Shown here: positions 47,260-63,792 of the stretch, in pieces
Layout of the letters: the number at the start of each line of letters is the position of its first letter
Position numbering within the stretch: the first letter of the stretch is position 1
Position numbers and translations under genes: made by a program
NCBI GenBank assembly: GCA_937926175.1
Contig: CALANV010000058.1
Coordinates: 47,544 to 111,543 of the forward strand
Source: an uncultured Rhodospirillales bacterium
GTDB lineage: Bacteria; Pseudomonadota; Alphaproteobacteria; CACIAM-22H2
DNA: 64,000 bases
Reading direction: 5' to 3'
The notes under the pieces: model-generated
What the model saw: the letters and a program-made list of their open reading frames with translations, nothing else
Told to the model about the DNA's origin: nothing
The model's database searches: none

Positions 47260-47651
47260 GCAACCGCGCCAATACCCTGCGCACGCAGCTCGGTCGCGTG
47301 CGCGGCCTGGGTGCGGCTCACCACGGCGTCGGCCACTGGTGGGCGCAGCGGGTCACCGCGGTCGCGCTGGTGCCGCTCGCCGTCTGGTTCGTCGCCTCGA
47401 TCGTAGCCCTAGCCGGCGCCGACCACGCCGCCGTCGTCGACTGGATCCGGAACCCGGTCTCGGCCGTCCTGTTGGTCGCGCTGATCGCGGCGGTTTTCCA
47501 CCACGCGCAGCTTGGCGTCCAGGTCGTCATCGAAGACTACGTCCATCACGAAGGGGTGAAAATCGGGAGCCTGCTGGCGGTGAAGGCTGTCCTGCTTCTG
47601 CTTGCGCTGGCTGCAGTTTTTGCCGTCCTGCGGATCGCCCTCGGAGGTTGA
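47256..47651 (+). CDS. sdhD: succinate dehydrogenase hydrophobic membrane anchor
   Basis: [45 protein letters not shown] overlap with sdhC. Confidence 0.9.
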
Positions 47652-47658
47652 GAACACC

Positions 47659-49482
47659 ATGCCTGAATCAACGAAAGTGACGACGCATCGCGTCACACCG
47701 GCCTATCCGATCATCGACCACACCTACGACGTCGTCGTGGTCGGTGCCGGCGGTGCCGGCCTGCGGGCGACGTTCGGCATGGCGATCGCCGGCCTCAAGA
47801 CCGCGTGCATCTCGAAGATCTTCCCCACGCGCAGCCACACCGTGGCGGCGCAGGGCGGAATCTCGGCCGCGCTCGGCAACATGGGACCGGACGACTGGCG
47901 CTGGCACATGTACGACACCGTCAAGGGCTCCGACTGGCTCGGCGACCAGGACGCGATCGAGTACATGTGCAAGGAGGCGATCCCGGCGATCATCGAGCTC
48001 GAGCACTATGGCGTGCCGTTCAGCCGCACGCCCGACGGCAAGATCTACCAGCGGCCGTTCGGCGGCATGACGACGGAATACGGCAAGGGTGTCGCGCATC
48101 GCACCTGCGCCGCGGCCGATCGCACCGGCCACGCCATCCTTCACACACTGTATCAGCAGTCGTTGCGGCACAACGCGGAGTTCTTCATCGAGTACTTCGC
48201 GCTCGACCTCATCATGGACGACGAGGGCACCTGCCGCGGCGTGATGGCCTGGAATCTCACCGACGGCACCATCCACCGTTTCCGCGCGCATCTGACGGTG
48301 CTTGCGACCGGCGGCTACGGCCGCGCCTATTTCTCGTGCACGTCCGCCCATACCTGCACGGGCGACGGCAACGCCATGGTGCTGCGCGCCGGGCTGCCGC
48401 TCCAGGACATGGAGTTCGTGCAGTTCCATCCGACCGGCATCTACGGCGCCGGCTGCCTCATCACCGAAGGCAGTCGCGGCGAGGGCGGATATCTCACCAA
48501 CTCCGAGGGCGAGCGGTTCATGGAGCGCTACGCGCCGTCGGCCAAGGATCTTGCCTCGCGCGACGTCGTCTCGCGTGCGATGACGATCGAGATCCGCGAG
48601 GGCCGCGGCTGCGGACCGCAGAAGGACTACATCCTGCTGCACCTCGAGCATCTGGGCGAGGACGTGCTGCGCGAGCGCCTGCCCGGCATCTCGGAGACCG
48701 CCAAGATCTTCGCCGGCGTCGACGTGACGAAGGAGCCGATCCCGGTGCTGCCGACCGTGCACTACAACATGGGCGGCATCCCGACGAACTACCGCGGCGA
48801 GGTCGTCACCCTGAAGGACGGCAATCCGGATGCGGTCGTGCCGGGCCTGATGGCGATCGGCGAAGCGGCCTGTGTGTCGGTCCACGGCGCCAACCGTCTG
48901 GGCTCGAACTCGCTGCTCGACCTCGTCGTCTTCGGCCGCGCGGCCGCCAAGCGCGCGGCGGAACTGGTCAAGCCGGGCACGCCGCACCCGCCGCTTCCGC
49001 GCGATGCGGGCGATGCGGCGCTGGCGCGCTTCGACCGCCTGCGCCACGCCAACGGCAGCACGCCGACCGCGGCACTCCGGCTCGAGATGCAGAAGGTGAT
49101 GCAGAACCACTGCGCGGTGTTCCGCACCGAGCAGGTGCTCGCCGAGGGCATACAGCTTCTCGAAGAAACGCGGAAGAAGAGCGCCGATATCCGCGTCAAC
49201 GACCGTTCGCTGGTGTGGAACTCGGACCTCGTCGAGACGCTCGAGTACGACAACCTGATCGCGCAGGCGATCGTCACCATGCATTCGGCGTACAACCGCC
49301 GGGAAAGCCGAGGCGCGCACGCGCGCGAGGACTTTCCGGAGCGCGACGACGTCAATTGGCTGAAGCACACCGTGGCGTGGCTGGACGACAACGGCAAGGT
49401 CCGGATCGACTACCGGCCCGTGCACCTCAATCCGCTCACGAACGAGGTTCAGAGCTTCCCGCCGAAGGCGCGCGTGTACTGA
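47659..49482 (+). CDS. sdhA: succinate dehydrogenase flavoprotein subunit
   Basis: [15 protein letters not shown]...[10 protein letters not shown]... FAD covalent His region. SD GGAGG. Confidence 0.95.
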
Positions 49483-49578
49483 GGTTTCAACCGTCGGCGG
49501 CCAGCCGTCAGCCTGACCGCCCAGGCGGCATCACAACCGTGCTGACAGCTGGTTGCTGAACGCTGAGAGCATCATCAG

Positions 49579-50355
49579 ATGGCCGAATTCGCACTTCCCG
49601 CCAACTCGAAGGTCACCGAGGGCAAGACCTGGCCGGCGCCCAAGGGCGCCACGCGCATCAAGACCTTCAAGATCTACCGCTGGGATCCGGACTCGGGCGC
49701 GAACCCGCGCATCGACACCTATCAGGTCGATCTCGATTCGTGCGGGCCGATGGTTCTGGACGCGCTGATCAAGATCAAGAACGAGATCGACTCGACGCTG
49801 ACCTTCCGGCGCTCGTGCCGCGAGGGCGTGTGCGGCTCGTGCGCCATGAACATCCAGGGCACGAACACGCTGGCCTGCACCAAGGCCATCGAGGACTGCG
49901 CGGGCGACGTGAAGATCTATCCGTTGCCGCATATGCCGGTGATCAAGGACCTTGTGCCGGACCTGAGCGGGGCGTTCGCGCAGTACCGGATGATCGAACC
50001 GTGGCTGAAGACCGAGACGCCGCCGCCCGACCGCGAGCGCCTGCAGACGCCGGAGGACCGCGCGCGGCTCGACGGGTTGTGGGAATGCATCCTGTGCTTC
50101 TGCTGCTCGACGAGCTGCCCCAGCTATTGGTGGAACGGCGATCGCTATCTCGGACCCGCCGTGCTGCTGCAGGCGTATCGGTGGATCGCCGACAGCCGCG
50201 ACGAGGCGACGGGCGAGCGGCTCGACGCGCTCGAGGATCCGTTCCGCCTCTATCGCTGCCACACCATCATGAACTGCACGCGGACGTGCCCGAAGGGCCT
50301 CAATCCGGCCAAGGCGATCGGCGAAATAAAGAAGCTGATGATCGCACGCCGCTGA
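49579..50355 (+). CDS. sdhB: succinate dehydrogenase iron-sulfur subunit
   Basis: [41 protein letters not shown] clusters. Confidence 0.95.
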
Positions 50356-50401: not shown

Positions 50402-50815
50402 TCAGCCGCGCTCTTCGTCCGTCCGGCGACGGACCTTCAGGACGGTGATGCGCCTGATGTCGCCGTCGAGACCCTCGAACTCGATCGACTGTCCTTCCGA
50501 CAGACCGATCAGTGCCGCACCGAGCGGAGTCAGAACCGACAACGTGTCCTCGCCCGAGTTGCGCTCGGACGGATAGACAAGCGTGACGGTGCGTTCGCGT
50601 CCGCTCGCTTCGTCCCGGAACAGGACCTGCGTATGCATGGTCACGGTGCCGGGTGGAATCTCGGCATTGTCCACGACCGTCGCCCGCGTAAGTTCTCGCA
50701 GCAGCAGATCGGCCGCCTTGGACAGCTTCCCGCCGCCGTAGGTCGCCAGCAGGTGATCGAGCCGGGCGAAGTCGTGCCGGCTGATCCGGATCGCGGGAAG
50801 GTCTTCGGACGTCAT
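50402..50815 (-). CDS. GreA/GreB-family regulator, Rnk (nucleoside diphosphate kinase regulator)-like
   Basis: 137 aa. C-terminal FKBP-like GreA domain (VTLVYPSERNSGEDTLSVLTPLGAALIGLSEGQSIEF). Confidence 0.75.
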   Translation of the reverse strand: MTSEDLPAIRISRHDFARLDHLLATYGGGKLSKAADLLLRELTRATVVDNAEIPPGTVTMHTQVLFRDEASGRERTVTLVYPSERNSGEDTLSVLTPLGAALIGLSEGQSIEFEGLDGDIRRITVLKVRRRTDEERG

Positions 50816-50863: not shown

Positions 50864-51523
50864 TCAGGCCGCCCTGTTCGGACCGGGGTCGTCGTCACCG
50901 TCCGGCAGGTTGGGGTTGCGTATCGGTCTTGGACGCAGCGGGATGACCCGCCGCTCGTCTCTGTCGTCGTCGGGGGCGCGCCGTTTTTCCTGGTCGTCGG
51001 TTGCGCTGGGGCGCGGCCAGTAACGGTACGGTGCGCGAAGGAAACGGCCTTCCGCTTCGGGTTGATAGGCGACCCGTTCGACGGTTGCGATCCAGCGCAT
51101 GCCCTCCCGGGCCGTGTAGGCCATCGCGCTTCCCGCCCGAAGCCCGAGCAGGGCCGCGCCAAGCGGCGACAGGACCGGAATCGCCGTACCGACGGCCCAA
51201 TGCGTCTCGTCGTAGACGAGCGTGCCGGATTCGACCGGATGGGTTATGTGGCGGCGGAAGAAGACCCGCGAGTTCATCGTGACCACGTCAGCGGGAATCA
51301 CGCCCGGGCGGCAGATGGTCGCACGGTCGAGTTCGTCGGAGAGAAAGCGCAGGATGGCCTCGTCGACATGGTCGCGCGACCGGTCGATCAACGAACGCAG
51401 CCGATCATGGTCATGGCAGGTGATCAGCAGCGGCGGCAGATCGGACGCCGATATCTTGGTACGCTCGCCGGTCGGTTGCGCGTCGTTCGGCGTGCGAACG
51501 TCCGTATCGGCTGAATTGATCAT
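50864..51523 (-). CDS. second Rnk/GreAB-family paralog with Asp/Pro-rich C-terminal extension
   Basis: MINSADTDV...GTLVYDETHWAVGTAIPVLSPLGAALLGLRAGSAMAY... then an acidic, Pro-rich tail of about 70 aa. SD GGAGGAAGGAAG. Confidence 0.7.
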   Translation of the reverse strand: MINSADTDVRTPNDAQPTGERTKISASDLPPLLITCHDHDRLRSLIDRSRDHVDEAILRFLSDELDRATICRPGVIPADVVTMNSRVFFRRHITHPVESGTLVYDETHWAVGTAIPVLSPLGAALLGLRAGSAMAYTAREGMRWIATVERVAYQPEAEGRFLRAPYRYWPRPSATDDQEKRRAPDDDRDERRVIPLRPRPIRNPNLPDGDDDPGPNRAA

Positions 51524-52227
51524 GGCAGACTTCCTTCCTCCTGACCTCTTGCTTCGCGGCAAGGCGGGGCCGGATCGAAACGGGCCGGCCTTGTTCCGGC
51601 CACGCGCAACCGCATCGCCGTCGCACGCGGCGGGACCGCCGAAACGCAGATGGACGATCTGGGGGAATTAGGTTTGGCCCCGGAGGCGGCACACGACCCT
51701 AAAGCGCATCAGCCGCACGGCGGGGCAAACGTCGGTTTGACGCAACCCGCTCCCTGGATGATCCAGCGCCGGGGGCGCGGAAGTCCAGAAAGGATCGAAG
51801 TCCGAAACATCGCATCGTTACTATATGGTCGCGCCACGGCAAGTTCAACGTGGCGCGGACGTCGCCGAAGGTTCACGCTTCTGCTGTCGTGACGGACGGC
51901 AATCGCGCGCCACGCGGTGTTCGTCCGGACGTGAACGGTCGGGAGCAGCTTTCGCTTGCGCGACGCGGGACGGCTGCCGATCATCGCCTGACACGTGCCC
52001 GGATTCCGCGTCACGATACGAGTCGATCGATTGCGGACATTCGCGCCGAGGCGCCATCGGCGTTGAAGCAGCGCGTGGAACATGGAATGAGGTGTGTGAT
52101 CGGCTCGAGCAGACGATGGCATGGCCCGATGATCAACCGGCGCGTCCCGAGAAGTCTCGGCCGACCGAAAGCGGCCCATCGCCGACGGCGTGACGCGCAG
52201 GCGTTCGGCGTCGGAGGGAACCGCCCG

Positions 52228-53229
52228 TTGACGGCACGCGCCCTCAGGCGGTCGCTGGCCGCGGCCGGCGGCCTTCTGCTGGCCGTGGCGGCGCAGCCCG
52301 TCGCGGCATTCGATGCGCAGGGCCATCGCGGCGTGCGGGGCCTGATGCCGGAGAACACGCTGCCGGCCTTCGCGACGGCGCTGTCGATCGGCGTGACGAC
52401 GCTCGAGTTCGACGTCGGCATTACCAGGGACGGGGCGGTGGTGATCGCGCATGACCGGCGTCTCAATCCCGACATCGCGCGGCGCGACGGCGTCTATGTC
52501 GAGGCGCCGGGACCGGCAATTCACACACTCACGCTTGCGGAACTCCGGAACTACGACGTCGGCACGCTGCGCCCCGGTTCGCGCTATGCCGCGCAATGGC
52601 CGCAGCAAAAGCAGCTTTCGGGCGTGCGGATTCCGACCGTGGGCGAGCTTGCCGCGCTCGTGCGCCGGGCCAACAATGCGCAGGTCCGATTCAATGTCGA
52701 GACGAAGATTTCCCCGCTCGCACCGGACGAGACCGTCGATCCGGAGGTCTTCGCATCGACGCTCGTCAAGGCGCTGCGCCGGGAGGGGATCGCGGCGCGC
52801 AGCACCGTTCAGTCGTTCGATTGGCGCACGCTCAGGGCCGTGCAGCGACTGGCGCCCGAAATCGCCACCGTCTGCCTGACCATCGAGCGCGGCGAGAACG
52901 ATAATGTCCAGCGGGGAAAGGATGGCGCCAGTCCCTGGCTTGCCGGGCTCGATGTCGACGATTATGCCGGCTCGGTCCCGCATGCGGTCGACGCGGCCGG
53001 CTGCCGCATCTGGTCGCCGTTCCATCGCGATCTCACACCCGACGCGCTGGCGACGGCTAAGGCGCTCGGCCTTGCGGTCGTCACCTGGACCGTCAACGAG
53101 CCCGCCGAGATGCGGCGCCTGATCGACAACGGCGTCGACGGAATCATCACCGACTATCCTGATCGCTTGCGCGCGGTCATGGCCGAGCAAAACATGCCAC
53201 TTCCTCCAGCAACACCGGTTGAACCATGA
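52228..53229 (+). CDS. glycerophosphodiester phosphodiesterase (GDPD/UgpQ-GlpQ family), secreted
   Basis: Signal peptide LTARALRRSLAAAGGLLLAVAAQPVAA, then FDAQGHRGVRGLMPENTLPAF...EFDV GDPD motifs. TTG start with SD GGAGGGAA. Alternative ATG at 52126. Confidence 0.75.
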   Translation: MTARALRRSLAAAGGLLLAVAAQPVAAFDAQGHRGVRGLMPENTLPAFATALSIGVTTLEFDVGITRDGAVVIAHDRRLNPDIARRDGVYVEAPGPAIHTLTLAELRNYDVGTLRPGSRYAAQWPQQKQLSGVRIPTVGELAALVRRANNAQVRFNVETKISPLAPDETVDPEVFASTLVKALRREGIAARSTVQSFDWRTLRAVQRLAPEIATVCLTIERGENDNVQRGKDGASPWLAGLDVDDYAGSVPHAVDAAGCRIWSPFHRDLTPDALATAKALGLAVVTWTVNEPAEMRRLIDNGVDGIITDYPDRLRAVMAEQNMPLPPATPVEP

Positions 53230-53894
53230 GCGGACCTCGCATTGCCCTCATCCACGCCCTGCCCGAATCCCCCGAACCGGCGAACAAGGCCTTCGCCGAA
53301 CTGTGGCCGGATGCGGCGCGCTTCAATCTCATGGACGACTCGCTGGCGCCCGATGTCGCGGCCGCCGGGTCGGTCACGCCGGCGATCGTCCAGCGTTTTC
53401 TCGATCTGTCGCACTATGCGGCGGGCACTGGCGCCGAGGCCATCCTGTTCACCTGTTCGGCCTTCGGCACGGCGATCGACGCGTGCAAGAAGGCGCTGTC
53501 GATTCCGGTGCTGAAGCCGAACGAGGCCGCCCTCGAGGAGGCGCTTGCCGCCGGTCCGCGCATCGCACTTCTCGCGACCTTCGGGCCGACCATTCCTTCG
53601 ATGACGGCGGAACTCGAGTCGATGGCCAAGGACCGCGGCATCGTGCCGACGATCATCACCCGCGTCGTCGAGGGCGCGCTGGACGCACTCAAGGCCGGCC
53701 GCGGCGACGAGCACGACCGGCTGATCGCCGAGGCCGCCGCCCAGCTGCCGCCGGTCGATGCGCTCGTACTCGCGCAATTCTCGATGGCCCGTGCGGCGCG
53801 CGCGATCGCGCCGGTCGAGGGCCGCAAGGTGATCACGACGCCGGCCAGCGCCGTCGCCAAGCTGCGGCAGTTGGTGGAGAAACGGTCGGCCTGA
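53226..53894 (+). CDS. Asp/Glu/hydantoin-racemase-superfamily protein
   Basis: MSGPRIALIHALPES...ILFTCSAFG... two-Cys racemase-fold pattern. ATGA overlap with the GDPD gene. Confidence 0.65.
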   Translation: MSGPRIALIHALPESPEPANKAFAELWPDAARFNLMDDSLAPDVAAAGSVTPAIVQRFLDLSHYAAGTGAEAILFTCSAFGTAIDACKKALSIPVLKPNEAALEEALAAGPRIALLATFGPTIPSMTAELESMAKDRGIVPTIITRVVEGALDALKAGRGDEHDRLIAEAAAQLPPVDALVLAQFSMARAARAIAPVEGRKVITTPASAVAKLRQLVEKRSA

Positions 53895-54050
53895 CGGTCG
53901 CCGCATCGAGCGCGCACGTCGCGCCACGCCACTTCCGCCGGAGGAAAGGGATGGTACATGCCACGCGCGTGGGCCGTCCCTCCGGCGCGAGAGGGGAAAT
54001 GCGAGACATGCGGGTGAAGAGCGGGCGTATCGGCCTGGCTATCGCCGCCG

Positions 54051-54239
54051 TCAGCTCACCGTTTCTTCGTCCCGGATCGCGCTCCGAACCTTGGCGCGCA
54101 ATTCGTTCGACATGCGCTCGATACCGTGGACGGTGCGTGCGTGCTCAGCCGCCTTCATCATCACGTCTTCCTCGTTATCGCCGCGCGCGACGTAGTCGCA
54201 CCCGGGCACGATCGCACCGCATTCGATCCGTTTGCGCAT
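54051..54239 (-). CDS. DUF1059 small metal-binding protein
   Basis: MRKRIECGAIVPGCDYVARGDNEEDVMMKAAEHARTVHGIERMSNELRAKV. The ORF allows an earlier start at 54290. Confidence 0.65.
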   Translation of the reverse strand: MRKRIECGAIVPGCDYVARGDNEEDVMMKAAEHARTVHGIERMSNELRAKVRSAIRDEETVS

Positions 54240-54378
54240 CGCGGATTCCCTCTCTGCAGATCTGTTCATTTCGTCCGATTTCAGGGACATGAACGCAGCA
54301 GCCGGCCCGAGGTTGCAGGACGGGGGCGATGAACGGAGCCGCTACCCGATCGGCGGCCGGGTCGCGGGGTGACGACCA

Positions 54379-54876
54379 ATGCCGGCCTGCTTCGTGATTT
54401 TCGGGGCGCGGTTGCGGCCCGACGGGTCGCCGGGACCGGCCCTGCGTCGTCGCGTCGCGGCCGCGCTTGAGGCGGCGCGCGGCATGCCGGATGCCGTCTT
54501 CCTCGTCACCGGCGGTCAGCCGCGGGCACACCGCACCGAAGCCGCGGTGATGCTTCATCTGCTGGAAGAGGCCGGCATCCCGCGCGCGCGCATCATCGTC
54601 GAAGACAAGGCGGCGAATACCCGGGCCTCCGCCTATCTCTGCGCCGCGATACTGCGCGCGCGGGGCGATCTGTCCCCGGTGTTTGCCTGCTCCGACCGCT
54701 TTCATCTGCCGCGCTGCGTGTGGCTGCTGCGGCTGGCCGGCGTTCGGGCCACGGCAGCGCGCGTGCCGGACGAACGGCGGCAGATGCGGCCGGCGCTGTG
54801 GGGCTTCCATGTCGCGCGCGAGATCGCGGCGATCGTCTACGACACCCTCGCGATGGGATTGCGTCGACGCGGGTAA
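54379..54876 (+). CDS. YdcF/DUF218 (ElyC/SanA-like) family protein
   Basis: MPACFVIFGARLRPDGSPGPALRRRVAAALEAARGMPDAVFLVTGGQP... DUF218 fold motifs. Confidence 0.7.
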   Translation: MPACFVIFGARLRPDGSPGPALRRRVAAALEAARGMPDAVFLVTGGQPRAHRTEAAVMLHLLEEAGIPRARIIVEDKAANTRASAYLCAAILRARGDLSPVFACSDRFHLPRCVWLLRLAGVRATAARVPDERRQMRPALWGFHVAREIAAIVYDTLAMGLRRRG

Positions 54877-54892
54877 ACGGCCGCGCGCCGGT

Positions 54893-55099
54893 TCAGGCGA
54901 GGGCGATCTCACCGTCGACGGTGTGGTGCAGGTCGGTGCCTTCCAGGGTCAGCACGACCCGTGCCTTCAGCTTTTCGTCGCCCTTCAGCCGGCCGGCTTT
55001 CACGGCCGCATGCACGGCGTTCTCGATCTCGCGCTGCGACGTCACGCCGACCAGCTTCAGGAACTTGCGCAGCTCCATGTTGAACACGTCCTCGTTCAT
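54893..55099 (-). CDS. small conserved hypothetical protein (68 aa)
   Basis: MNEDVFNMELRKFLKLVGVTSQREIENAVHAAVKAGRLKGDEKLKARVVLTLEGTDLHHTVDGEIALA. SD GGAGGG. Confidence 0.6.
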   Translation of the reverse strand: MNEDVFNMELRKFLKLVGVTSQREIENAVHAAVKAGRLKGDEKLKARVVLTLEGTDLHHTVDGEIALA

Positions 55100-55222
55100 G
55101 CCTTCGCCCTCCATTGCTTGACCGGTAGCGCCAGCGTGGCACGCGGCGTCCGTCTTTACAAAGGTCCGTCTGTGGTCCACCCGGCACCCTGATGGGAGGC
55201 CGGTTGCCTGATGGTCGGCTCG

Positions 55223-55241
55223 TTTGTATTCTGTATACAAA
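55223..55241 (+). promoter_or_regulatory. candidate GntR-family operator (7-5-7 inverted repeat containing the TGTATACA core)
   Basis: TTTGTATtctgTATACAAA ends 2 nt before the GntR start codon. Confidence 0.5.
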
Positions 55242-55243
55242 CG

Positions 55244-55954
55244 ATGGAACGCTTGTCCCTGCATCCTCCGCTGGCCGAGCGCGTCTATGCGGCGATCCGC
55301 GATGCGATCTGCAGCGGCGAGCTGCCGCCCGGCGCCCGGCTCACGCAGGAGCAGCTCGCCGCCCGTCTCGACGTGTCGCGGCAACCGGTACTGCAGGCGC
55401 TCATTCTCCTGAAGAAGCAGGGCTTCGTGCGCGAGGTCGGCCGCCGCGGCGTCGTCGTGGCGCCGCTCGACCCGGTCTTCGTCGCGCAGCTCTACGAGGT
55501 GCGCGCCGCGCTCGACGGGCTCGCATGCCGTGCGGCCGCGGCGCGGCGCCCGGACGAGGCGCGTCGGCACGGTCCCGCCTTGATCGAGGCCGGGCGCGCC
55601 GCCGTGCGCTCGGGCTCGGTCGCGCAGATGGTCGAGGCCGATATCCGCTTCCATCAGTTTCTCTACGAGCTGTCCGGCAACCCGCTGATCGCCGAGACGG
55701 CGGCGCTTCACTGGCTGCACATACGCCGCGTCATGGGAGGCTACCTGCAGCGGGACCGCGCGCGCGACGACATCTGGGACGAGCACGCCGCCATTCTCGG
55801 GGCCGTGGCCGACGGCGCCGCCGAGCGGGCCGAGCGTCTGGCGCGCGAGCATGCCGAGACGTCGGCGCGCAAGCTCACCGGCGCGCTCGCAGCCGAACAC
55901 GCGCCGCAACACGATCTTCGCGAAGATGCGCAGAAAGGGAGGAACGCACGATGA
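55244..55954 (+). CDS. GntR-family transcriptional regulator (FadR/FCD subfamily)
   Basis: N-terminal wHTH (ERVYAAIRDAICSGELPPGARLTQEQLAARLDVSRQPV), FCD C-terminal domain. Confidence 0.9.
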   Translation: MERLSLHPPLAERVYAAIRDAICSGELPPGARLTQEQLAARLDVSRQPVLQALILLKKQGFVREVGRRGVVVAPLDPVFVAQLYEVRAALDGLACRAAAARRPDEARRHGPALIEAGRAAVRSGSVAQMVEADIRFHQFLYELSGNPLIAETAALHWLHIRRVMGGYLQRDRARDDIWDEHAAILGAVADGAAERAERLAREHAETSARKLTGALAAEHAPQHDLREDAQKGRNAR

Positions 55955-56757
55955 AACTGAGCGAGCAGCAGATCCGCGAGTTCGAGGAGTTGGGATACCT
56001 GTTCCTGCCCAACGTCTTCACGCCCGAGGAAATGGATATCCTCAACGCCGAGGTCCCCGGGATCTTCGCCCAGAGGCGGGACGAGGTGATCCGCGAGAAG
56101 GGATCCGACGCGCCGCGCTCGGCGTTCTACGTGCAGACATGGAACGAGGTCTTCGGCCTCGTTGCCCGTCATCCGCGCCTGGTCGAGCCCGCGATGCAGC
56201 TTCTCGGCTCCGACAAGCTCTACATGCATCAGTTCAAGATCAACGCCAAGGCCGCTTTCGACGGCGCCGTGTGGCAGTGGCATCAGGATTACGCGACCTG
56301 GTACAACGACGACGACATGCCCGAGCCCAAGGCGATGAACATCGCGCTGTTCCTGGCCGAGGCGAACGAGTTCAACGGCCCGTTGATGTTCATTCCGCGG
56401 AGCCACCGCAAGGGCCGGCTCGAGGCCGGGCACGACACGACGACGACGAGCTATCCGCTATGGACGATCGACAACGACACGATCACCAGGCTCGTCAACG
56501 AGGGCGGGATCGTCGCGCCGAAGGGGCCGCCGGGCTCCGTGCTCCTGTTCCACGGCAACATCGTGCATGCGTCGGGCTCCAATCTGACGCCGTGGTCGCG
56601 GTGGATCCTGTATCTTTCGCTCAATCGCTGCGACAATGCGATCCGGCGGTTCAAGCGGCCGACCTGGATCGCCAACCGTGATTTCACGCCGATCGAGATG
56701 CTGCCGGATGACTGTCTGATCCAGTACGCGCGGTGGCGCGCGAGCGCGGCGGAATGA
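55951..56757 (+). CDS. PhyH-superfamily Fe(II)/2-oxoglutarate dioxygenase, ectoine-hydroxylase (EctD)-like
   Basis: WQWHQDYATWYNDDDMPEPKAMNIALFLAEANEFNGPLMFIPRSHRKG resembles the EctD signature (WHSDFETWH...NGPLM..PGSH). ATGA-coupled to GntR. SD AAAGGGAGGAA. Confidence 0.75.
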   Translation: MKLSEQQIREFEELGYLFLPNVFTPEEMDILNAEVPGIFAQRRDEVIREKGSDAPRSAFYVQTWNEVFGLVARHPRLVEPAMQLLGSDKLYMHQFKINAKAAFDGAVWQWHQDYATWYNDDDMPEPKAMNIALFLAEANEFNGPLMFIPRSHRKGRLEAGHDTTTTSYPLWTIDNDTITRLVNEGGIVAPKGPPGSVLLFHGNIVHASGSNLTPWSRWILYLSLNRCDNAIRRFKRPTWIANRDFTPIEMLPDDCLIQYARWRASAAE

Positions 56758-56810
56758 GGTGACCTGATCCTCTCCCGCCGGAAAGGGAATCGGAGCGAAG
56801 GAAGGGACAC

Positions 56811-58178
56811 ATGAATCTGCACCGTCTCCTCAGCCGGCGTGCCGCCGAGGGCAAGCCGCTGCGCGTCGGCCTGATCGGTGCCGGCAAGTTCGGCACGATG
56901 TATCTCGCCCAGGCGCTGCGCACGCCAGGCGTGCACGTGCTCGGCATCGCCGACCTGTCGGTGCCGCGCGCCCGCGACGCGCTGACGCGCACCGGCTGGC
57001 CTGCCGAGCGGATCGGCGCCCGCAGCCTCGACGATGCGCTGAAGACCGGCGCCACGCATGTCGGTGACGATGTCGAGGCGCTGATCAAGGCGCCCGGTCT
57101 CGACATCGTCATCGAGGCGACCGGCAATCCGCCGGCGGCGGTGAGCCACGCACTCAAGGCGTTCGCCGCCGGAAAGCACGTGATCATGGTGACGGTCGAG
57201 GCGGACGCCTTTTGCGGTCCGCTGCTCGCCCGGCGTGCCGCCGCGGCCGGCGTCATCTACAGCCTGGCCTATGGCGATCAGCCGGCGCTGATCTGCGACC
57301 TCGTCGACTGGGCGCGCGCCGCCGGCTTCGACGTCGTCGCGGCGGGCCGCGGCCACAAGTGGCTGCCGCACTATCACCAGTCGACGCCGGACACGGTGTG
57401 GGAACACTGGGGCCTGAGCGCCGAGCAGGCCAAACTCGGCGGCCTCAATCCGCAGATGTTCAACTCGTTCCTCGACGGCTCCAAGCCGGCGATCGAGAGC
57501 ACGGCGGTGTGCAACGCGACCGGACTGGTGCCGCCGCCGCACGGGCTTGAATTTCCGCCGTGCTCGATCGCCGACATGCCGTTCGTCTGCCGCCCGAAAT
57601 CCGAAGGCGGTCAGCTTCACGTCAAGGGCCAGGTCGAAGTCCTGTCGTCGCTGGAGCGCGACGGACGGCCCATCCCCGACAACATCCGTTGGGGCGTGTT
57701 CGTCGTGTTCGAAGGCGACAGCGAATATGTGCGCCGTTGCTTCAAGGAGTACGGGCTCGTCACCGATCCGAGCGGCCGCTACAGCGCGATGTACAAGCGC
57801 TGGCATCTGATCGGGCTCGAGCTCGGTATCTCCGTCGCCTCGGTGGGGTTGCGCGGCGAGCCGACCGGCTGTCCGGACGGGTTCCGTGCCGACGTCGTCG
57901 CGACGGCGAAGCGCGATCTCAAGGCCGGCGAAATTCTCGACGGCGAAGGCGGCTACACGGTATATGGCCGGCTGATGCCGGCGGTCGACAGCCTCGCCCT
58001 GGGCGGCCTGCCGCTTGGTCTCGCGCACAAGGTGAAGCTCGTCAACCCGATCAAGGCGGGACAGCCGGTGCGATGGGCCGACGTGCAGGTCGACGACAGC
58101 CTCGAGGCCGTTCAGATCCGCCGCGAGATGGAGACGATCTTTCGCGCCGAGATCGGCGCGCGCCACGCCGCCGACTGA
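56811..58178 (+). CDS. NAD(P)-binding oxidoreductase, homoserine-dehydrogenase-like with C-terminal SAF domain (COG4091-type)
   Basis: LRVGLIGAGKFGTMY Rossmann N-terminus. 455 aa. Confidence 0.65.
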   Translation: MNLHRLLSRRAAEGKPLRVGLIGAGKFGTMYLAQALRTPGVHVLGIADLSVPRARDALTRTGWPAERIGARSLDDALKTGATHVGDDVEALIKAPGLDIVIEATGNPPAAVSHALKAFAAGKHVIMVTVEADAFCGPLLARRAAAAGVIYSLAYGDQPALICDLVDWARAAGFDVVAAGRGHKWLPHYHQSTPDTVWEHWGLSAEQAKLGGLNPQMFNSFLDGSKPAIESTAVCNATGLVPPPHGLEFPPCSIADMPFVCRPKSEGGQLHVKGQVEVLSSLERDGRPIPDNIRWGVFVVFEGDSEYVRRCFKEYGLVTDPSGRYSAMYKRWHLIGLELGISVASVGLRGEPTGCPDGFRADVVATAKRDLKAGEILDGEGGYTVYGRLMPAVDSLALGGLPLGLAHKVKLVNPIKAGQPVRWADVQVDDSLEAVQIRREMETIFRAEIGARHAAD

Positions 58179-58186
58179 ATGTCAGC

Positions 58187-59146
58187 ATGACCTTCTCGAC
58201 CGCGATCACCGAACGACTGGGTATCCGTCATCCGATCATCCTTGCGCCGATGGGCGGTGTGGCCGGCGGCGAACTCGCAGCGGCGGTGACGCGCGCCGGT
58301 GGCCTCGGCCTGATCGGCGCCGGCTATGCCGACGAGGACTGGATCGGTCAGCAATTCGATGCCACCGGTGACGTGCAGGTCGGCATCGGATTCATCACTT
58401 GGCATCTCGCCAAGCATCCGGCACGGCTGGAGGCGGCACTTGCCCGCAAGCCCCGCGCCGTCATGCTGTCCTTCGGCGACGCTGCGCCGTTCACCGACAG
58501 GATCAAACGGGCTGGCGCGGCGCTGATCATGCAGGTGCAATCGCCGGCCGAGGCGGTCGAGGCGAAGCGGCTGGGCGCCGACGTCATCGTCGCCCAGGGC
58601 AGCGAGGCGGGCGGGCACGGCACGACGGCCCGCGGGCTGCTGCCGCTGTTGCCTGCCGTCGTCGATGCGGTCGCACCGACGCCGGTCGCGGCCGCGGGCG
58701 GCATCGTCGACGGGCGGGGATTGGCGGCGGCGCTGGCGCTCGGCGCCGCGGGCGTCCTCGTCGGTACGCGGTTTTACGCTGCGCGCGAATCGCTCGGCCA
58801 TGACGAGGCGAAGGCACGCATCGTTGCAGCGCGTGCCGAGGAGACGGTGCGCACGCACGTCTTCGACGTGGTGCGCGGACTCGACTGGCCGAAGCAGTAC
58901 ACCGGGCGCGCCATCCGCAATGACTTCACCCGGCGCTGGCACGGGCGCGAAGCGGCGCTTGAGGCCGCGCTCGCTGACGAGCGCGTGCGCTATGCCGACG
59001 CCGCTGCGGCGGGCGATTTCACGACCGCCGTGGTGTGGGCGGGCGAAGGCGTCGACCTGATCGACCGTGTCCTTCCCGCCGCCGACATCGTCCGGCAGAT
59101 GATCGAACAGGCCGAGGCGGCGCTCGCGCGCATCAAACGGGCCTGA
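58187..59146 (+). CDS. NMO-family FMN-dependent oxidoreductase (nitronate monooxygenase / 2-nitropropane dioxygenase-like)
   Basis: MTFSTAITERLGIRHPIILAPMGGVAGGELAAAVTRAGGLGLIG...AQGSEAGGHG. Confidence 0.85.
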   Translation: MTFSTAITERLGIRHPIILAPMGGVAGGELAAAVTRAGGLGLIGAGYADEDWIGQQFDATGDVQVGIGFITWHLAKHPARLEAALARKPRAVMLSFGDAAPFTDRIKRAGAALIMQVQSPAEAVEAKRLGADVIVAQGSEAGGHGTTARGLLPLLPAVVDAVAPTPVAAAGGIVDGRGLAAALALGAAGVLVGTRFYAARESLGHDEAKARIVAARAEETVRTHVFDVVRGLDWPKQYTGRAIRNDFTRRWHGREAALEAALADERVRYADAAAAGDFTTAVVWAGEGVDLIDRVLPAADIVRQMIEQAEAALARIKRA

Positions 59147-59322
59147 CGTCGGCCGACGGCCGTCCGGCGCGGTACCACTGGCGAAGACGCGCCGCATCGG
59201 CTAGCTGTTGACGCCGATCGGTCCCCCGACCATCCCTCGGCTGATTTCTCCTGCGCGAGCGGCAGGGGGGCTCTGTTCCAGGGGCCAGGGCACGGATTGT
59301 TGCGGCCCCGAGCGAAGCGGTA

Positions 59323-60171
59323 GTGATGATGAGTGCGACCAGTCGGAACGTCCGGATCACCACGCGGGATCTGCGTGCGCGCAAGGGGGCCGTACCGATC
59401 ACGGCGCTCACGGCCTACACCACACCGATCGCACGATTGCTCGATCCGCACTGCGACCTGCTGCTGGTCGGCGACTCCCTCGGCATGGTGATCTACGGCA
59501 TGGAGAGCACGCTCGGTGTCACGCTCGATATGATGATCCGCCACGGCGCGGCGGTGATGCGCGGGTCGCAGCGCGCCTGCGTCATCGTCGATCTGCCGTT
59601 CGGCTCGTATCAGGAATCGCCACAGCAGGCGTTCCGCAGCGCGGCGCGGGTGATGGCCGAGACCGGTTGCGCCGGCGTCAAACTCGAGGGTGGAGCGGAG
59701 ATGGCGGAAACGATCGCGTTCCTGGTCGAGCGCGGCATCCCCGTGCTGGGTCATATCGGCCTGAAGCCGCAATCGGTGCACAGCCACGGCGGCTTCCGCG
59801 CCCAGGGGCGCGAGAAGTCCGAGGCGGATCGGATCATGGCCGATGCCGACGCGGTCCAGGCGGCAGGCGCGTTTGCCACCGTGCTGGAAGGTACGATCGA
59901 GCCGGTCGCGCGCGCGGTCACCGAGCGGCTCGACATTCCGGTGATCGGCATCGGGGCATCGCCCGCCTGCGACGGTCAGATCCTCGTCACCGACGACATG
60001 ATCGGACTGTTCGCCGACTTCACGCCGAAGTTCGTGAAACGCTACGCGGCGGTCGGCGAGGCCATCGTCCGGGCGGCAGAGGCCTATGCCGCGGACGTAC
60101 GCGCCCGACGGTTTCCCGCGGCCGAGCACTGCTTCGGATCGCGCACCGAGACCTCTTCCCAGCAAGTCTGA
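59323..60171 (+). CDS. panB: 3-methyl-2-oxobutanoate hydroxymethyltransferase
   Basis: ITALTAYT...VGDSLGMV...VKLEGG. Confidence 0.9.
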
Positions 60172-60177
60172 ACCACC

Positions 60178-61062
60178 ATGACCGGCATTGATGCCAAGTC
60201 GCGGCCGCTTACCGTCGTCCGTCGGATCGATGAATTGCGGGCGCTCGTGCGCGGGTTCCGCGCCGCCGGCGAAACAGTCGCCCTGGTGCCGACGATGGGC
60301 GCGCTGCATGCGGGCCATCTCGCGCTGGTGCGTGCCGGACAGGCGGAATGCCGCCGCGTCATTGCGACCATCTTCGTCAATCCGACCCAGTTCGGCCCGA
60401 ACGAGGATTTCCACAGCTATCCGCGCGACGAGCCGGGTGACATCGCCAAACTCGAAAGCGTCGGCGCCGATGCGGTCTTCATCCCCGCGGTCGAGGAGAT
60501 GTACCGGCCGGGCGCCAGCACCACCGTGACGGTGGCGGGCCTCACCGAGGATCTGTGCGGCCGTTTTCGTCCCGGTCACTTTGCCGGCGTCGCCACGGTG
60601 GTGACCAAGCTGCTGCTGCAGGCGTTGCCCGACGTGGCGCTGTTCGGCGAGAAGGACTATCAGCAGCTTCTGGTGATCAAACGTCTGGTCCGCGATCTCG
60701 ACATTCCGGTGCGCGTCATCGGCGTCCCGACGGTGCGCGAGGAAGACGGCTTGGCGCTGTCCTCGCGCAACGCGTACCTGTCGCCCGAGCAGCGGCAGAT
60801 CGCGCCTGTACTGCATCGGGTGCTGACGCGGATCGCGCAGCGTCTCGCGCAAGGGGCGGAGGCCGCACCCCTTCTCGCCGACGGGCGAGCCGAACTCGAG
60901 CGCGCCGGCTTCGGACCCGTGCAGTATCTCGAGGCGCGGGATGCCGAGACGCTCGAGCCCATCGCCCACGCGGTGCGGGATGCACGCGTCCTGGCTGCCG
61001 TGTATCTCGGCAAGGTCCGGCTGATCGACAACGTGCCGGTCCCGGCGCATGACGGCGGCTGA
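60178..61062 (+). CDS. panC: pantoate--beta-alanine ligase
   Basis: LVPTMGALHAGHLALV...IFVNPTQF...GEKDYQQ. Confidence 0.95.
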   Translation: MTGIDAKSRPLTVVRRIDELRALVRGFRAAGETVALVPTMGALHAGHLALVRAGQAECRRVIATIFVNPTQFGPNEDFHSYPRDEPGDIAKLESVGADAVFIPAVEEMYRPGASTTVTVAGLTEDLCGRFRPGHFAGVATVVTKLLLQALPDVALFGEKDYQQLLVIKRLVRDLDIPVRVIGVPTVREEDGLALSSRNAYLSPEQRQIAPVLHRVLTRIAQRLAQGAEAAPLLADGRAELERAGFGPVQYLEARDAETLEPIAHAVRDARVLAAVYLGKVRLIDNVPVPAHDGG

Positions 61063-61131: not shown

Positions 61132-62265
61132 ATGACGTCGGACACTGGCGAGGGCCCTCTCGCCGCCTATCGGGCACGGCTGGCCGCAGGCCGGCTCAGA
61201 CACGATCCCGCTCAGGCGCTTGCCGCAGAGAAGCTCGAGAGCCTCCATCGGGCTCTGAAAGGCTATCGGCCGGGAGCCGAGGCCGGCGGCTGGCGCGCGC
61301 GTCTCGGTCTCGCCCGCCGGCCCGATCCGGCCCCGAACGGCCTCTACATCTTCGGCGGGGTCGGGCGCGGCAAGTCGATGTTGATGGACCTGTTCTTCGC
61401 GACCGCGCCGGTCGAGAAGAAGCGGCGGGTGCATTTCAACGCCTTCATGCTCGAGATTCACGACCGGCTCTACATGGGCCAGAAGGCGTCGGCGCCGCGC
61501 GCGGGCGTGCATCCGCTGATGCCGCTCGCGACCCGCATCGCGGAGGAGGCGTGGCTCCTCTGCTTCGACGAATTTCAGGTCACCAACATCGCCGATGCGA
61601 TGATCCTGGGGCGTCTGCTGGAGGCGCTGTTTGAGCGTGGCGTGGTGATCGTCATCACATCGAACACCGCGCCGGACGATCTCTATGCCGGCGGCCTGCA
61701 GCGGGAACGTTTCCTGCCGACGATCGACCTGATCAAGTCGCGGCTCGACGTGCTGGAGCTCGATGGCGGAATCGACTATCGCCGCGAGCGGGTCAAGGGC
61801 ACGCCGGTCTACTACACGCCGCTCGGGCCCGAGGCGACCGCGGCGCTCGAATCGATGTTCCTCTATCTGACGGACGGCGAGGTCGGATCACCGCGGAAGA
61901 TCCGGGTGCAGGGACGCGAGCTGATCGTGCCACGTGCCGCGCGCGGTGTTGCCATGGCGTCGTTCGCCGATTTGTGCGAGCGGCCCTTGGGCCCCGCCGA
62001 CTTCGTCGCCCTTGCGACGCATTTCGAAGTGCTCATCCTCGACGGCATCCGCGTCATGGGCCCCGACGATCGCAACGCCGCCAAGCGGTTCATCACGCTG
62101 ATCGACGAGCTCTACGAGCATCGCGTCAATCTGATCTGCGCCGCCGAGGCGGCGCCGGAGGCCCTTTACCCGCAAGGGGACCACGCGGTGGAGTTCCGCC
62201 GCACGGTCTCGCGGCTGCACGAGATGCAAAGTGAGGACTATCTCGGCAGTCCGCACCTGACCTGA
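61132..62265 (+). CDS. zapE: cell division protein ZapE (AFG1-like ATPase)
   Basis: GLYIFGGVGRGKSMLMDLFF Walker A, CFDEFQV Walker B. Confidence 0.85.
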   Translation: MTSDTGEGPLAAYRARLAAGRLRHDPAQALAAEKLESLHRALKGYRPGAEAGGWRARLGLARRPDPAPNGLYIFGGVGRGKSMLMDLFFATAPVEKKRRVHFNAFMLEIHDRLYMGQKASAPRAGVHPLMPLATRIAEEAWLLCFDEFQVTNIADAMILGRLLEALFERGVVIVITSNTAPDDLYAGGLQRERFLPTIDLIKSRLDVLELDGGIDYRRERVKGTPVYYTPLGPEATAALESMFLYLTDGEVGSPRKIRVQGRELIVPRAARGVAMASFADLCERPLGPADFVALATHFEVLILDGIRVMGPDDRNAAKRFITLIDELYEHRVNLICAAEAAPEALYPQGDHAVEFRRTVSRLHEMQSEDYLGSPHLT

Positions 62266-62392
62266 CACGCGAATCAGGGCAGGAATTCCGTTCCCGCATG
62301 GAACCCGCGGCCATCCGGCCGCGTGAATTGGGGCGGCGGTACCGTCGGATGTCGACGGGGCCGGCAATCCCGTAACACTTCCGAGAGGACAG

Positions 62393-62644
62393 ATGAATTC
62401 GAGATCGAACCGCCTGACGGTCGTCGGCCTTGCCGTCCTCGTCGGGGCCTGCGCGGCTGGCGGTCACGCCGGGTATACGCAGACGCGTCCGGACGCGACG
62501 CCGTGGCCGGAGGCCCGGGCGCTGTGCTGGCGCGAGTCGATGGGAAGTGGCGGCAGCGGCCAGGACTACACCAACCGGCAATGGGTCGTTTACAACGCCT
62601 GCATGGCCCGAAACGGTTGGGCCGATATGAGAAGCCTGTTCTGA
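62393..62644 (+). CDS. small putative lipoprotein (83 aa)
   Basis: MNSRSNRLTVVGLAVLVGAC signal peptide with a lipobox-like VGAC. Function unknown. Confidence 0.5.
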   Translation: MNSRSNRLTVVGLAVLVGACAAGGHAGYTQTRPDATPWPEARALCWRESMGSGGSGQDYTNRQWVVYNACMARNGWADMRSLF

Positions 62645-62736
62645 CATCCGGGGCGACATTCCGCCCGGCATCGCGCCGTTTTTGCCCCGGGCCCCCGCCG
62701 CGGGCCTGCTCCGATGGTGGGACGGGCCCCGAATGA

Positions 62737-63792
<1,056 letters not shown>

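Follow-up and report, generated by a model that had tools for sequence, protein, structure and literature searches.

A GntR-linked dioxygenase-dehydrogenase pair from an uncultured Rhodospirillales bacterium as a candidate route for hydroxylation and oxidation of a small amino or imino acid

Introduction

The locus described here occupies positions 55220-59146 of the window, the whole 64,000-nucleotide stretch of DNA that was analyzed (contig CALANV010000058.1, uncultured Rhodospirillales bacterium), and carries genes for a GntR regulator, a PhyH-superfamily dioxygenase (hereafter DIOX), an NAD(P) oxidoreductase with a C-terminal SAF domain (hereafter DLO), and an NMO-family flavoenzyme (hereafter NMO). 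It raises the question of which of these genes belong together and on what kind of compound their products act. A sequence-only reading of the same DNA had proposed a four-gene operon for the catabolism of a modified amino acid or an osmolyte-like compound. Our analysis points to a smaller unit consisting of the regulator, DIOX, and DLO. The chances appear about even that this unit is an autoregulated two-enzyme cassette in which a small free amino or imino acid is hydroxylated and the new hydroxyl group is oxidized, and sequence comparison puts a proline-like compound forward, tentatively, as the leading candidate for the substrate.

Gene content of the locus

Domain profile searches confirmed four plus-strand genes across 55244-59146, in a region with a GC content of about 68%. 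These genes and the candidate operator are as follows.

55220..55244, no strand assigned: candidate operator palindrome of the GntR regulator, a perfect 10-nt inverted repeat
55244..55954, plus strand: GntR regulator, FadR/FCD subfamily, 236 aa (PF00392, 57.9 bits; PF07729, 88.9 bits)
55951..56757, plus strand: DIOX, Fe(II)/2-oxoglutarate dioxygenase of the PhyH superfamily, 268 aa (PF05721, 109 bits)
56811..58178, plus strand: DLO, DRL/DXR-II-like NAD(P) oxidoreductase fitting the DLO2 type, 455 aa (PF21135 DRL_cat, 190.6 bits)
58187..59146, plus strand: NMO-family FMN enzyme, 319 aa (PF03060, 164.3 bits)

The coupling of a FadR-subfamily GntR regulator to a PhyH dioxygenase, as described in the sequence-only reading, was borne out by the matches to PF00392, PF07729, and PF05721 and by the overlap of the DIOX ATG (55951-55953) with the regulator TGA (55952-55954) in an ATGA; GGGAGG precedes the DIOX ATG. 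DLO starts 53 bp past the DIOX stop codon with a GGAAGGG ribosome-binding site in front, and NMO starts 8 bp past the DLO stop codon and is probably co-transcribed with the cassette in the window. The beginning of the operon had been placed at 55223, which falls within the inverted repeat 55220-55244 and outside the coding sequence, while its end at 59146, the NMO stop, stands. A scan for promoters and terminators gave no useful information (0 promoter-like sites, and no terminator 3′ of NMO), and no Rfam element or riboswitch was matched at E ≤ 0.1 within 53000-60500.

Co-conservation of the regulator, DIOX, and DLO

A genome scan with DIOX as the query, using one genome per species, yielded 80 loci with 60-86% identity from Stellaceae, Dongiaceae, Reyranella, Skermanella, many Burkholderiales, Rokubacteria, Methylomirabilota, Poribacteria, and Latescibacterota. 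Among the 71 loci with at least 1.5 kb of downstream sequence, 49 had DLO immediately 3′ of DIOX. In the reverse scan, DLO alone was searched against metagenome contigs; of the 61 loci whose upstream sequence was long enough, 56 had DIOX immediately 5′ of DLO. The median DIOX-DLO spacer was 14 bp. Regulator homologues with 40-66% identity were located directly 5′ of DIOX in 24 of 76 genome loci and also in many metagenome loci. The arrangement of regulator, DIOX, and DLO is far beyond chance, whereas the presence of NMO is not.

NMO was found in none of the 80 genome loci (0/80). Metagenome NMO genes with 66-68% identity occurred only in four close relatives, approximately 300 bp past DLO in L089 and L090 and approximately 5 kb away in L095 and L096 (L numbers denote individual loci). 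This absence beyond the closest relatives refutes the four-gene operon of the sequence-only reading as a conserved module; the neighborhood and co-occurrence analysis suggested there as a check came out in favor of DIOX and DLO, often with the regulator, and against NMO. Likewise, in the proposed sequence of hydroxylation, oxidation, and reduction or oxygenation, the first two steps fit the tight DIOX-DLO co-conservation, whereas the third is without comparative support. NMO scored 164.8 bits against the FabK equivalog TIGR03151 (cut-off, 453.1 bits), and its best PDB matches were FabK-type enoyl reductases at 126 bits. We regard it as a lineage-specific addition, a local passenger outside the conserved core.

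In one Stellaceae metagenome-assembled genome contig (L001:3724-5919), DIOX and DLO formed a single in-frame open reading frame of 732 aa with a short linker (...AVAEGSRMNLS...); this single case could be a natural fusion or the result of a stop codon lost in assembly. DIOX homologues with 37-39% identity had other partners, namely, a second PhyH gene, nonribosomal peptide synthetase (NRPS) genes, and LysR regulators; the coupling to DLO is specific to this orthogroup.

The neighbors of 112 cassette loci were clustered, and neither a constant partner beyond the cassette nor a conserved transporter or third enzyme was found, in agreement with the earlier remark that no pathway partner is evident. 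The recurrent neighbors were only lineage-specific housekeeping genes, plus an SDR gene, which was the only recurrent same-strand enzyme gene right after DLO (5 loci). In alphaproteobacteria like that of the window, the cassette lies between sdhAB and zapE-mdh-sucCDAB, the tricarboxylic acid cycle backbone, and in Reyranella-like genomes between LemA/HtpX and def/argB. In betaproteobacteria, the pair or DLO alone follows pyrG-kdsA-eno-ftsB at a distance of 20-90 bp without the regulator (L022, L024, L046, L080, L100, L106, and L137).

Either gene was also observed on its own at the same syntenic site, with DIOX lacking its partner in L014 and DLO following ftsB directly in L100 and L137. This persistence of each gene alone is compatible with a hydroxylated intermediate that can be supplied or consumed by further routes as well. 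Interruptions between DIOX and DLO were one-off, with an opposite-strand CMD/AhpD-like open reading frame in L054 and an FAD monooxygenase in L128; in L106, a Fic-like insertion was present and DIOX was absent. Genes inserted between DIOX and DLO were accordingly rejected as cassette members. The insertion in L128 (6507-7976) encodes an FAD-dependent, aromatic-ring-hydroxylase-like monooxygenase of 489 aa.

Family and active-site residues of DIOX

The dioxygenase motif pattern quoted in the sequence-only reading was present in DIOX as WQWHQDYATW and NGPLMFIPRSH. The best solved relatives of DIOX were H11 (215 bits, 42.6% identity), GriE (167 bits, 35.3%), and EctD (134 bits, 32.8%). The H11 PDB entries carry the molecule name 'phytanoyl-CoA dioxygenase', and their titles read 'Trans-3/4-proline-hydroxylase H11'. 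These titles were retrieved with a structure model of DIOX that was built from a shallow alignment and used solely for this purpose. At E ≤ 1e-20, 7912 DIOX homologues were obtained, the best 120 of which had 79-87% identity and were automatically named 'ectoine hydroxylase' or 'proline hydroxylase'.

In GriE, H110, D112, and H210 are the iron ligands, and R242 forms a salt bridge with the carboxylate of the bound amino acid (PMC5676206). H111, D113, and H206 of DIOX align with these three ligands and are predicted to bind iron. R236 aligns with GriE R242 and with the arginine of H11 TRPEW and probably anchors the substrate carboxylate, while R217 is the probable 2-oxoglutarate-binding arginine. 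All five residues (H111, D113, H206, R217, and R236) were invariant among 25 DIOX orthologues. DIOX thus appears to belong to a clade that hydroxylates free amino acids. The substrate-covering loop reads RSAFYVQ in DIOX, RGVHGCH in H11, and RALYASH in GriE, and the DIOX lid contains an orthogroup-specific invariant HD..TTSYPLW. The loop and the lid differ from those of H11 and GriE, yet both are strongly conserved inside the DIOX orthogroup. The corresponding GriE loops close over the substrate (PMC5676206).

The sequence-only reading had called the dioxygenase EctD-like and considered the catabolism of an osmolyte, an idea under which an ectoine-hydroxylase-like enzyme would start the breakdown of ectoine, hydroxyectoine, or another osmolyte. 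The likeness holds at the superfamily level: ectoine_ThpD (TIGR02408) was the only NCBIfam model with a sizeable match to DIOX, and the loop RSAFYVQ is nearer to RSIFEIH of EctD than to RGVHGCH of H11. However, the score of 171.7 bits is approximately half of the equivalog cut-off of 336.5 bits, and EctD is the most distant of the three characterized relatives, behind H11 and GriE. The EctD signature, the 17-residue consensus FxWHSDFETWHxEDG(M/L)P, was checked against the EctD sequence of S. alaskensis, whose counterpart is FYWHSDFETWHVEDGMP; of the 15 positions that are fixed in this consensus, the DIOX segment WQWHQDYATWYNDDDMP shares 8. The ect, eut/doe, ehu/ueh, and tea genes were not found beside the cassette in the window or in the 112 related loci. 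With score, signature, and gene context all failing, ectoine hydroxylase was rejected as the identity of DIOX, and catabolism of an osmolyte-like compound, which no neighboring ectoine, transport, or catabolic gene supports, is very improbable.

Two further candidates were set aside. A role in phosphonate metabolism was rejected since the scores of the regulator against PhnR and of DIOX, weakly, against methylphosphonate hydroxylase were far below the cut-offs, and no phn gene was linked. The 'P4H' genes of Bordetella and Pseudomonas (918-924 bp; PMC4055215) are longer than the DIOX gene; they were taken, without sequence comparison, as ectoine-hydroxylase-sized genes and not as orthologues of DIOX, and were not used as evidence.

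Probable assignment of DLO to the DLO2 branch

From the N- to the C-terminus, DLO is made up of a Rossmann domain (GLIGAGKFG), a DRL catalytic domain, and a SAF domain, with matches to PF21135, PF01408 (GFO_IDH_MocA), PF03447 (NAD_binding_3), and PF08666 (SAF). These matches agree with the earlier description of an NAD(P) oxidoreductase 3′ of the dioxygenase with a homoserine-dehydrogenase-like N-terminus and a SAF C-terminus, which had missed the membership in the DRL/DXR-II-like family (PF21135; 3UPL/3UPY). The sole solved relatives of DLO were 3UPL and 3UPY, both Brucella DRL (206 bits, 32.6% identity).

The DXR-II family has been split into true DXR-II and the uncharacterized DLO1 and DLO2 groups (Carretero-Paulet et al. 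2013, PMC3847144). According to that study, Thr229, which anchors the substrate or fosmidomycin, Gly121, and His250 are conserved in DXR-II and linked to function; DLO2 members carry Pro at 229 and Ala at 121; and the tested representatives of DLO1 and DLO2 failed to complement a dxr mutant (PMC3847144). In the window DLO, Gly121, Thr229, and His250 are replaced by Ala, Pro, and Glu, respectively. Across 57 aligned DLO sequences, position 229 was P in 34, S in 20, and A in 3. K228 was invariant in DLOs, 191 was kept as R or K, and 193 was mostly K; the retention of basic residues at 191 and 193 suggests that an anionic substrate is still likely.

The criteria for DLO2 membership were homology to DXR-II, one of Pro, Ser, and Ala at 229, either Ala or Ser at 121, and grouping with proteobacterial DLO2 members. 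The residues of the window DLO fit DLO2, and a 63.6%-identical homologue is located on a replicon of Cupriavidus necator N-1; this strain is listed under DLO2 (PMC3847144). Judged by the diagnostic residues, DLO fits the DLO2 branch, to which it probably belongs, and not true DXR-II. In the literature beyond the 2013 paper, nothing was found that gives a function to DLO2, COG4091, or PF21135, and a literature search for a bacterial DLO-type hydroxyproline dehydrogenase found none.

In principle, DLO could be a true DXR-II (DRL) that makes methylerythritol phosphate (MEP) for isoprenoids, with neighbors of unrelated function. Its best structural relative is Brucella DRL, it has the Pfam DRL catalytic domain, and the betaproteobacterial gene follows ftsB, the position taken by ispD-ispF in E. 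coli. This position of the betaproteobacterial DIOX-DLO genes may be a coincidence or a hint at a housekeeping role. Identity to Brucella DRL is, however, just 32.6%, and a near-obligate linkage to a dioxygenase is without rationale in the MEP pathway. All three diagnostic residues are replaced, two of them by the changes reported for DLO2, and the tested DLO1 and DLO2 representatives failed in dxr complementation (PMC3847144). True DXR-II was rejected on the replaced residues, and we give a role in isoprenoid synthesis hardly any credence.

DLO genes outside the cassette

In a neighbor-joining tree, some DLOs without a linked DIOX fell within the same clade as those of the cassette. On a Phaeobacter plasmid, the order was a hydroxyacid-dehydrogenase-like gene, an IlvD/Edd dehydratase gene, DLO, and an SMP-30 lactonase gene; on a Chelatococcus plasmid, it was LysR, a TRAP transporter, DLO, and an ABM protein. 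The contexts of DLO outside the cassette suggest that DLOs act as dehydrogenases on hydroxy compounds that are small and anionic.

More distant DLO homologues (53-55% identity) were observed in a recurrent cluster on plasmids of Sinorhizobium, Mesorhizobium, and Limimaricola (L084, L085, and L086). In this cluster, DLO is accompanied by genes for a small ABM ('quinol monooxygenase') protein and for an oxidoreductase resembling hydroxyacid dehydrogenases, with a LysR regulator nearby; TRAP transporter genes come next in L084 and L086, and a gluconokinase gene is present in L084. The annotation of these records gives no function for the cluster.

These contexts bear on the possibility that the substrate is not an amino acid, with DLO as a sugar-acid or hydroxy-carboxylate dehydrogenase and DIOX hydroxylating a deoxy or alkyl carboxylate to feed it. 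The same-clade DLOs of the Phaeobacter and Chelatococcus plasmids, the distant DLOs clustered with ABM, dehydrogenase, TRAP transporter, and gluconokinase genes, and the basic residues at 191 and 193, which bind the phosphonate of fosmidomycin in DXR-II and suggest an anionic substrate, are in its favor. On the other hand, the closest characterized relatives of DIOX all act on free amino or imino acids or ectoine, and no sugar-acid gene was linked to the cassette itself. Moreover, the SDR enzymes L-KDFDH/BDH2 take cis-4-hydroxy-L-proline as well as 2-keto-3-deoxy sugar acids in their furanosyl ring form, the two being alike in shape (PMC11199699), so that the sugar-acid contexts would also be compatible with an imino acid. 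This precedent could explain the DLO orthologues in sugar-acid-type clusters by analogy, although an analogy is not evidence. We consider a non-amino-acid substrate decidedly unlikely.

The regulator and its putative operator

The GntR winged-helix domain (PF00392) covers residues 10-72 of the regulator and the FCD domain (PF07729) residues 82-205, both above the gathering cut-offs. The regulator reached no NCBIfam equivalog, the best being phnR_burk with 101 bits against a cut-off of 271.5 bits. The palindrome reads TCGTTTGTAT-tctgt-ATACAAACGA and contains GTATTCTGTATACAAA, and its last base is the A of the regulator ATG. Allowing up to 2 mismatches, the motif TCTGTATACAGA was found 5′ of the regulator start, mostly about 2-50 bp away, in 38 of 50 regulator-bearing loci. 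As controls, loci that lack the regulator had it in 1 of 84 cases, and random 225-bp windows drawn from the same loci in 2 of 820. The palindrome and the conserved motif at the regulator start suggest autoregulation of the regulator-DIOX-DLO transcript; judged from these sequences, the regulator probably represses its own operon through this putative operator. The position of the palindrome and motif also favors 55244 over 55211 as the regulator start codon, and 55244 was backed by homologues.

The regulator gene is divergent from a small gene, and the pair shares a 144-bp intergenic region that holds the palindrome.

54893-55099, minus strand: small DUF6494 gene, 68 aa (110 bits), divergent from the GntR regulator

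FCD-type GntR repressors with an operator of their own typically control the use of carboxylate nutrients. This general pattern argues against the possibility that the cassette is biosynthetic rather than catabolic and that its product, for instance an oxo-amino acid or a cyclic imino acid arising from an amino-acid aldehyde, is a modified amino acid used as a signal, antimetabolite, protectant, or building block. Such a role would parallel GriE/GriF(/GriH) in the formation of 4-methylproline and the isoleucine dioxygenase and dehydrogenase of Bacillus thuringiensis; GriE is a solved homologue of DIOX (35.3% identity), and its partner dehydrogenase acts on the hydroxylated product. More distant DIOX homologues lie within NRPS clusters of Nostocales, no transporter or downstream catabolic gene accompanies the cassette, and the variable slot after DLO (SDR in 5 loci, NMO here) could hold an imine- or keto-reducing third step. 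Nevertheless, NRPS, exporter, and tailoring genes were linked in none of the 112 cassette loci, and it would be unusual for specialized metabolism to occur in so many Alpha- and Betaproteobacteria of soil and fresh water, as well as in other phyla, with 60-87% identity. A biosynthetic role is therefore considered unlikely.

Genes surrounding the cassette

Going 5′ from the regulator, the window contains the DUF6494 gene on the minus strand, a DUF218 gene, the racemase-like and glycerophosphodiester phosphodiesterase (GDPD) genes, two Rnk/GreA-like genes, and sdhA/sdhB. On the 3′ side, NMO is followed by panB, panC, zapE, and mdh in this order.

47584-50355: sdhA and sdhB, upstream of the cassette
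50402-50815 and 50864-51562, minus strand: two tandem genes resembling nucleoside diphosphate kinase regulators, each with an Rnk_N domain and a GreA/GreB C-terminal domain
51850-53229, plus strand: GDPD gene
53226-53894, plus strand: Asp/Glu/hydantoin-racemase-family gene, with a 4-bp overlap with the GDPD gene
59323-61062: panB-panC, between NMO and zapE
61132-63792: zapE and mdh, downstream of the cassette

The tandem Rnk_N/GreA-GreB pair is placed between sdhB and the GDPD gene. A racemase-like gene was also observed just 5′ of the cassette in L007, L017, L089, L090, L092, L094, and L095, and a GDPD-like gene near the cassette in L007 and L027. Together with NMO, panB-panC was inserted solely in the window lineage. 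A link to pantoate metabolism through the adjacent panB-panC was rejected, as panBC was absent from all related loci.

Proposed function of the cassette

Gene content, family assignments, co-conservation, tight spacing, and a conserved operator are the direct observations from which the following scheme starts. The FadR-type GntR regulator would bind the palindrome at its own start codon and repress the operon, and a small carboxylate ligand, either the substrate or the product, would release it; the conserved operator points to this repression and release. As judged from the homology to H11 and GriE, DIOX would depend on Fe(II), 2-oxoglutarate, and O2 and would introduce a hydroxyl group at an unactivated carbon of its substrate, a small free amino or imino acid that R236 would hold by the carboxylate; proline or a close cyclic analogue is the leading candidate. 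The DLO2-type enzyme would then oxidize the hydroxyl group to a carbonyl group with NAD(P)+, as the operon coupling and the enzyme family suggest; possible products are an oxo-proline and an amino-acid aldehyde able to cyclize or open. The carbonyl product would enter general metabolism or be passed in some genomes to an extra reductase-type enzyme; either NMO, as here, or SDR, as elsewhere, may process it, and neither belongs to the core. More speculatively, 4-oxoproline arising by this route could undergo ring opening through beta-elimination and then be reduced to 5-aminolevulinate by an ene-reductase, such as the FabK-like NMO. GriE/GriF, a hydroxylase followed by a dehydrogenase on a free amino acid, provides a precedent that supports the scheme.

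The kind of substrate, the direction in which DLO works, and the role of the cassette in the cell are inferred, and several observations weigh against hydroxylation and oxidation of an amino or imino acid such as proline. DLO was missing from 22 of the 71 genome loci with DIOX. No amino-acid transporter or downstream catabolic gene was conserved beside the cassette in the 112 loci, and the regulator-less pair at eno-ftsB resembles constitutive housekeeping more than inducible catabolism, which weakens the case. The loop and lid differences from H11 suggest that the substrate of DIOX may not be proline, and the low-confidence DIOX model (mean predicted local distance difference test score, 65.6) is uninformative on the binding pocket. 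DLO orthologues with 60-63% identity occur without DIOX beside an IlvD/Edd dehydratase and a lactonase or beside a TRAP transporter, so that DLO may act on sugar-acid-like compounds.

With these points taken into account, it is possible, if rather doubtful, that the cassette represents an undescribed and widespread route in which a proline-hydroxylase-like enzyme forms a hydroxy-imino or hydroxy-amino acid that is oxidized by DLO2, which would be the first function of DLO2. If true, this would suggest that dehydrogenases acting on small hydroxy-carboxylates, for example hydroxyproline or keto-deoxy sugar acids in the ring form, were the source from which the alternative isoprenoid enzyme DXR-II was recruited. 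The pairing with DIOX gives the orphan DLO2 family its first testable function and bears on the evolution of DXR-II. The cassette is common in soil, groundwater, and freshwater Proteobacteria and several candidate phyla, and annotation pipelines mislabel the pair as 'ectoine hydroxylase' and 'homoserine dehydrogenase / Gfo-Idh-MocA oxidoreductase'. Its cultured carriers include Reyranella soli NBRC 108950 (L062), Skermanella aerolata KACC 11604 (L079), Dongia deserti (L003), and Indioceanicola profundi. The proline and leucine hydroxylases of the DIOX clade are sought as biocatalysts.

Comparison with known systems

Like the FadR-subfamily GntR repressors, the window regulator joins a GntR winged-helix-turn-helix domain to an FCD domain, and the GT...AC-core palindrome that is its putative operator overlaps its own promoter and start region; it differs from them in falling below every equivalog model. 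DLO has the same Rossmann-DRL-SAF architecture as DXR-II/DRL of Brucella abortus (3UPL, 3UPY) and retains K228 and basic residues at 191/193, whereas Thr229, Gly121, and His250 are not kept.

EctD (TIGR02408) belongs to the same superfamily as DIOX and has the HxD...H iron site and a related signature region, but DIOX lies under the equivalog cut-off, matches 8 of the 15 signature positions, and is without the ect gene context. H11 (PDB 7DZZ, 7E01, 7DT0, 8H7T, and related entries), a bacterial free-L-proline hydroxylase, shares with DIOX the PhyH-type Fe/2-oxoglutarate fold, a length of 266-268 aa, 42.6% identity over the whole protein, and the motifs FKINAK, W-x-W-H-Q-D-Y, and EFNGPL and the R-P-x-W arginine. 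It differs in the loop and the lid segment, which the DIOX and H11 groups each conserve in their own form; the analysis of linkage to a DRL-like dehydrogenase covered the DIOX orthogroup.

The cassette resembles GriE/GriF-like hydroxylase-dehydrogenase pairs. In griselimycin biosynthesis by GriE/GriF(/GriH), a leucine 5-hydroxylase is followed by a dehydrogenase acting on the hydroxylated product and then by a reductase. The logic is the same in that a homologous Fe/2-oxoglutarate hydroxylase of a free amino acid, with aligned iron ligands and carboxylate arginine, stands beside an NAD+-dependent dehydrogenase gene. GriF, however, is a zinc-dependent alcohol dehydrogenase unrelated to DLO, whose own family is uncharacterized, and the gri genes form part of an NRPS cluster of an actinomycete, whereas the DIOX-DLO cassette stands alone with a GntR repressor and is widespread in Proteobacteria.

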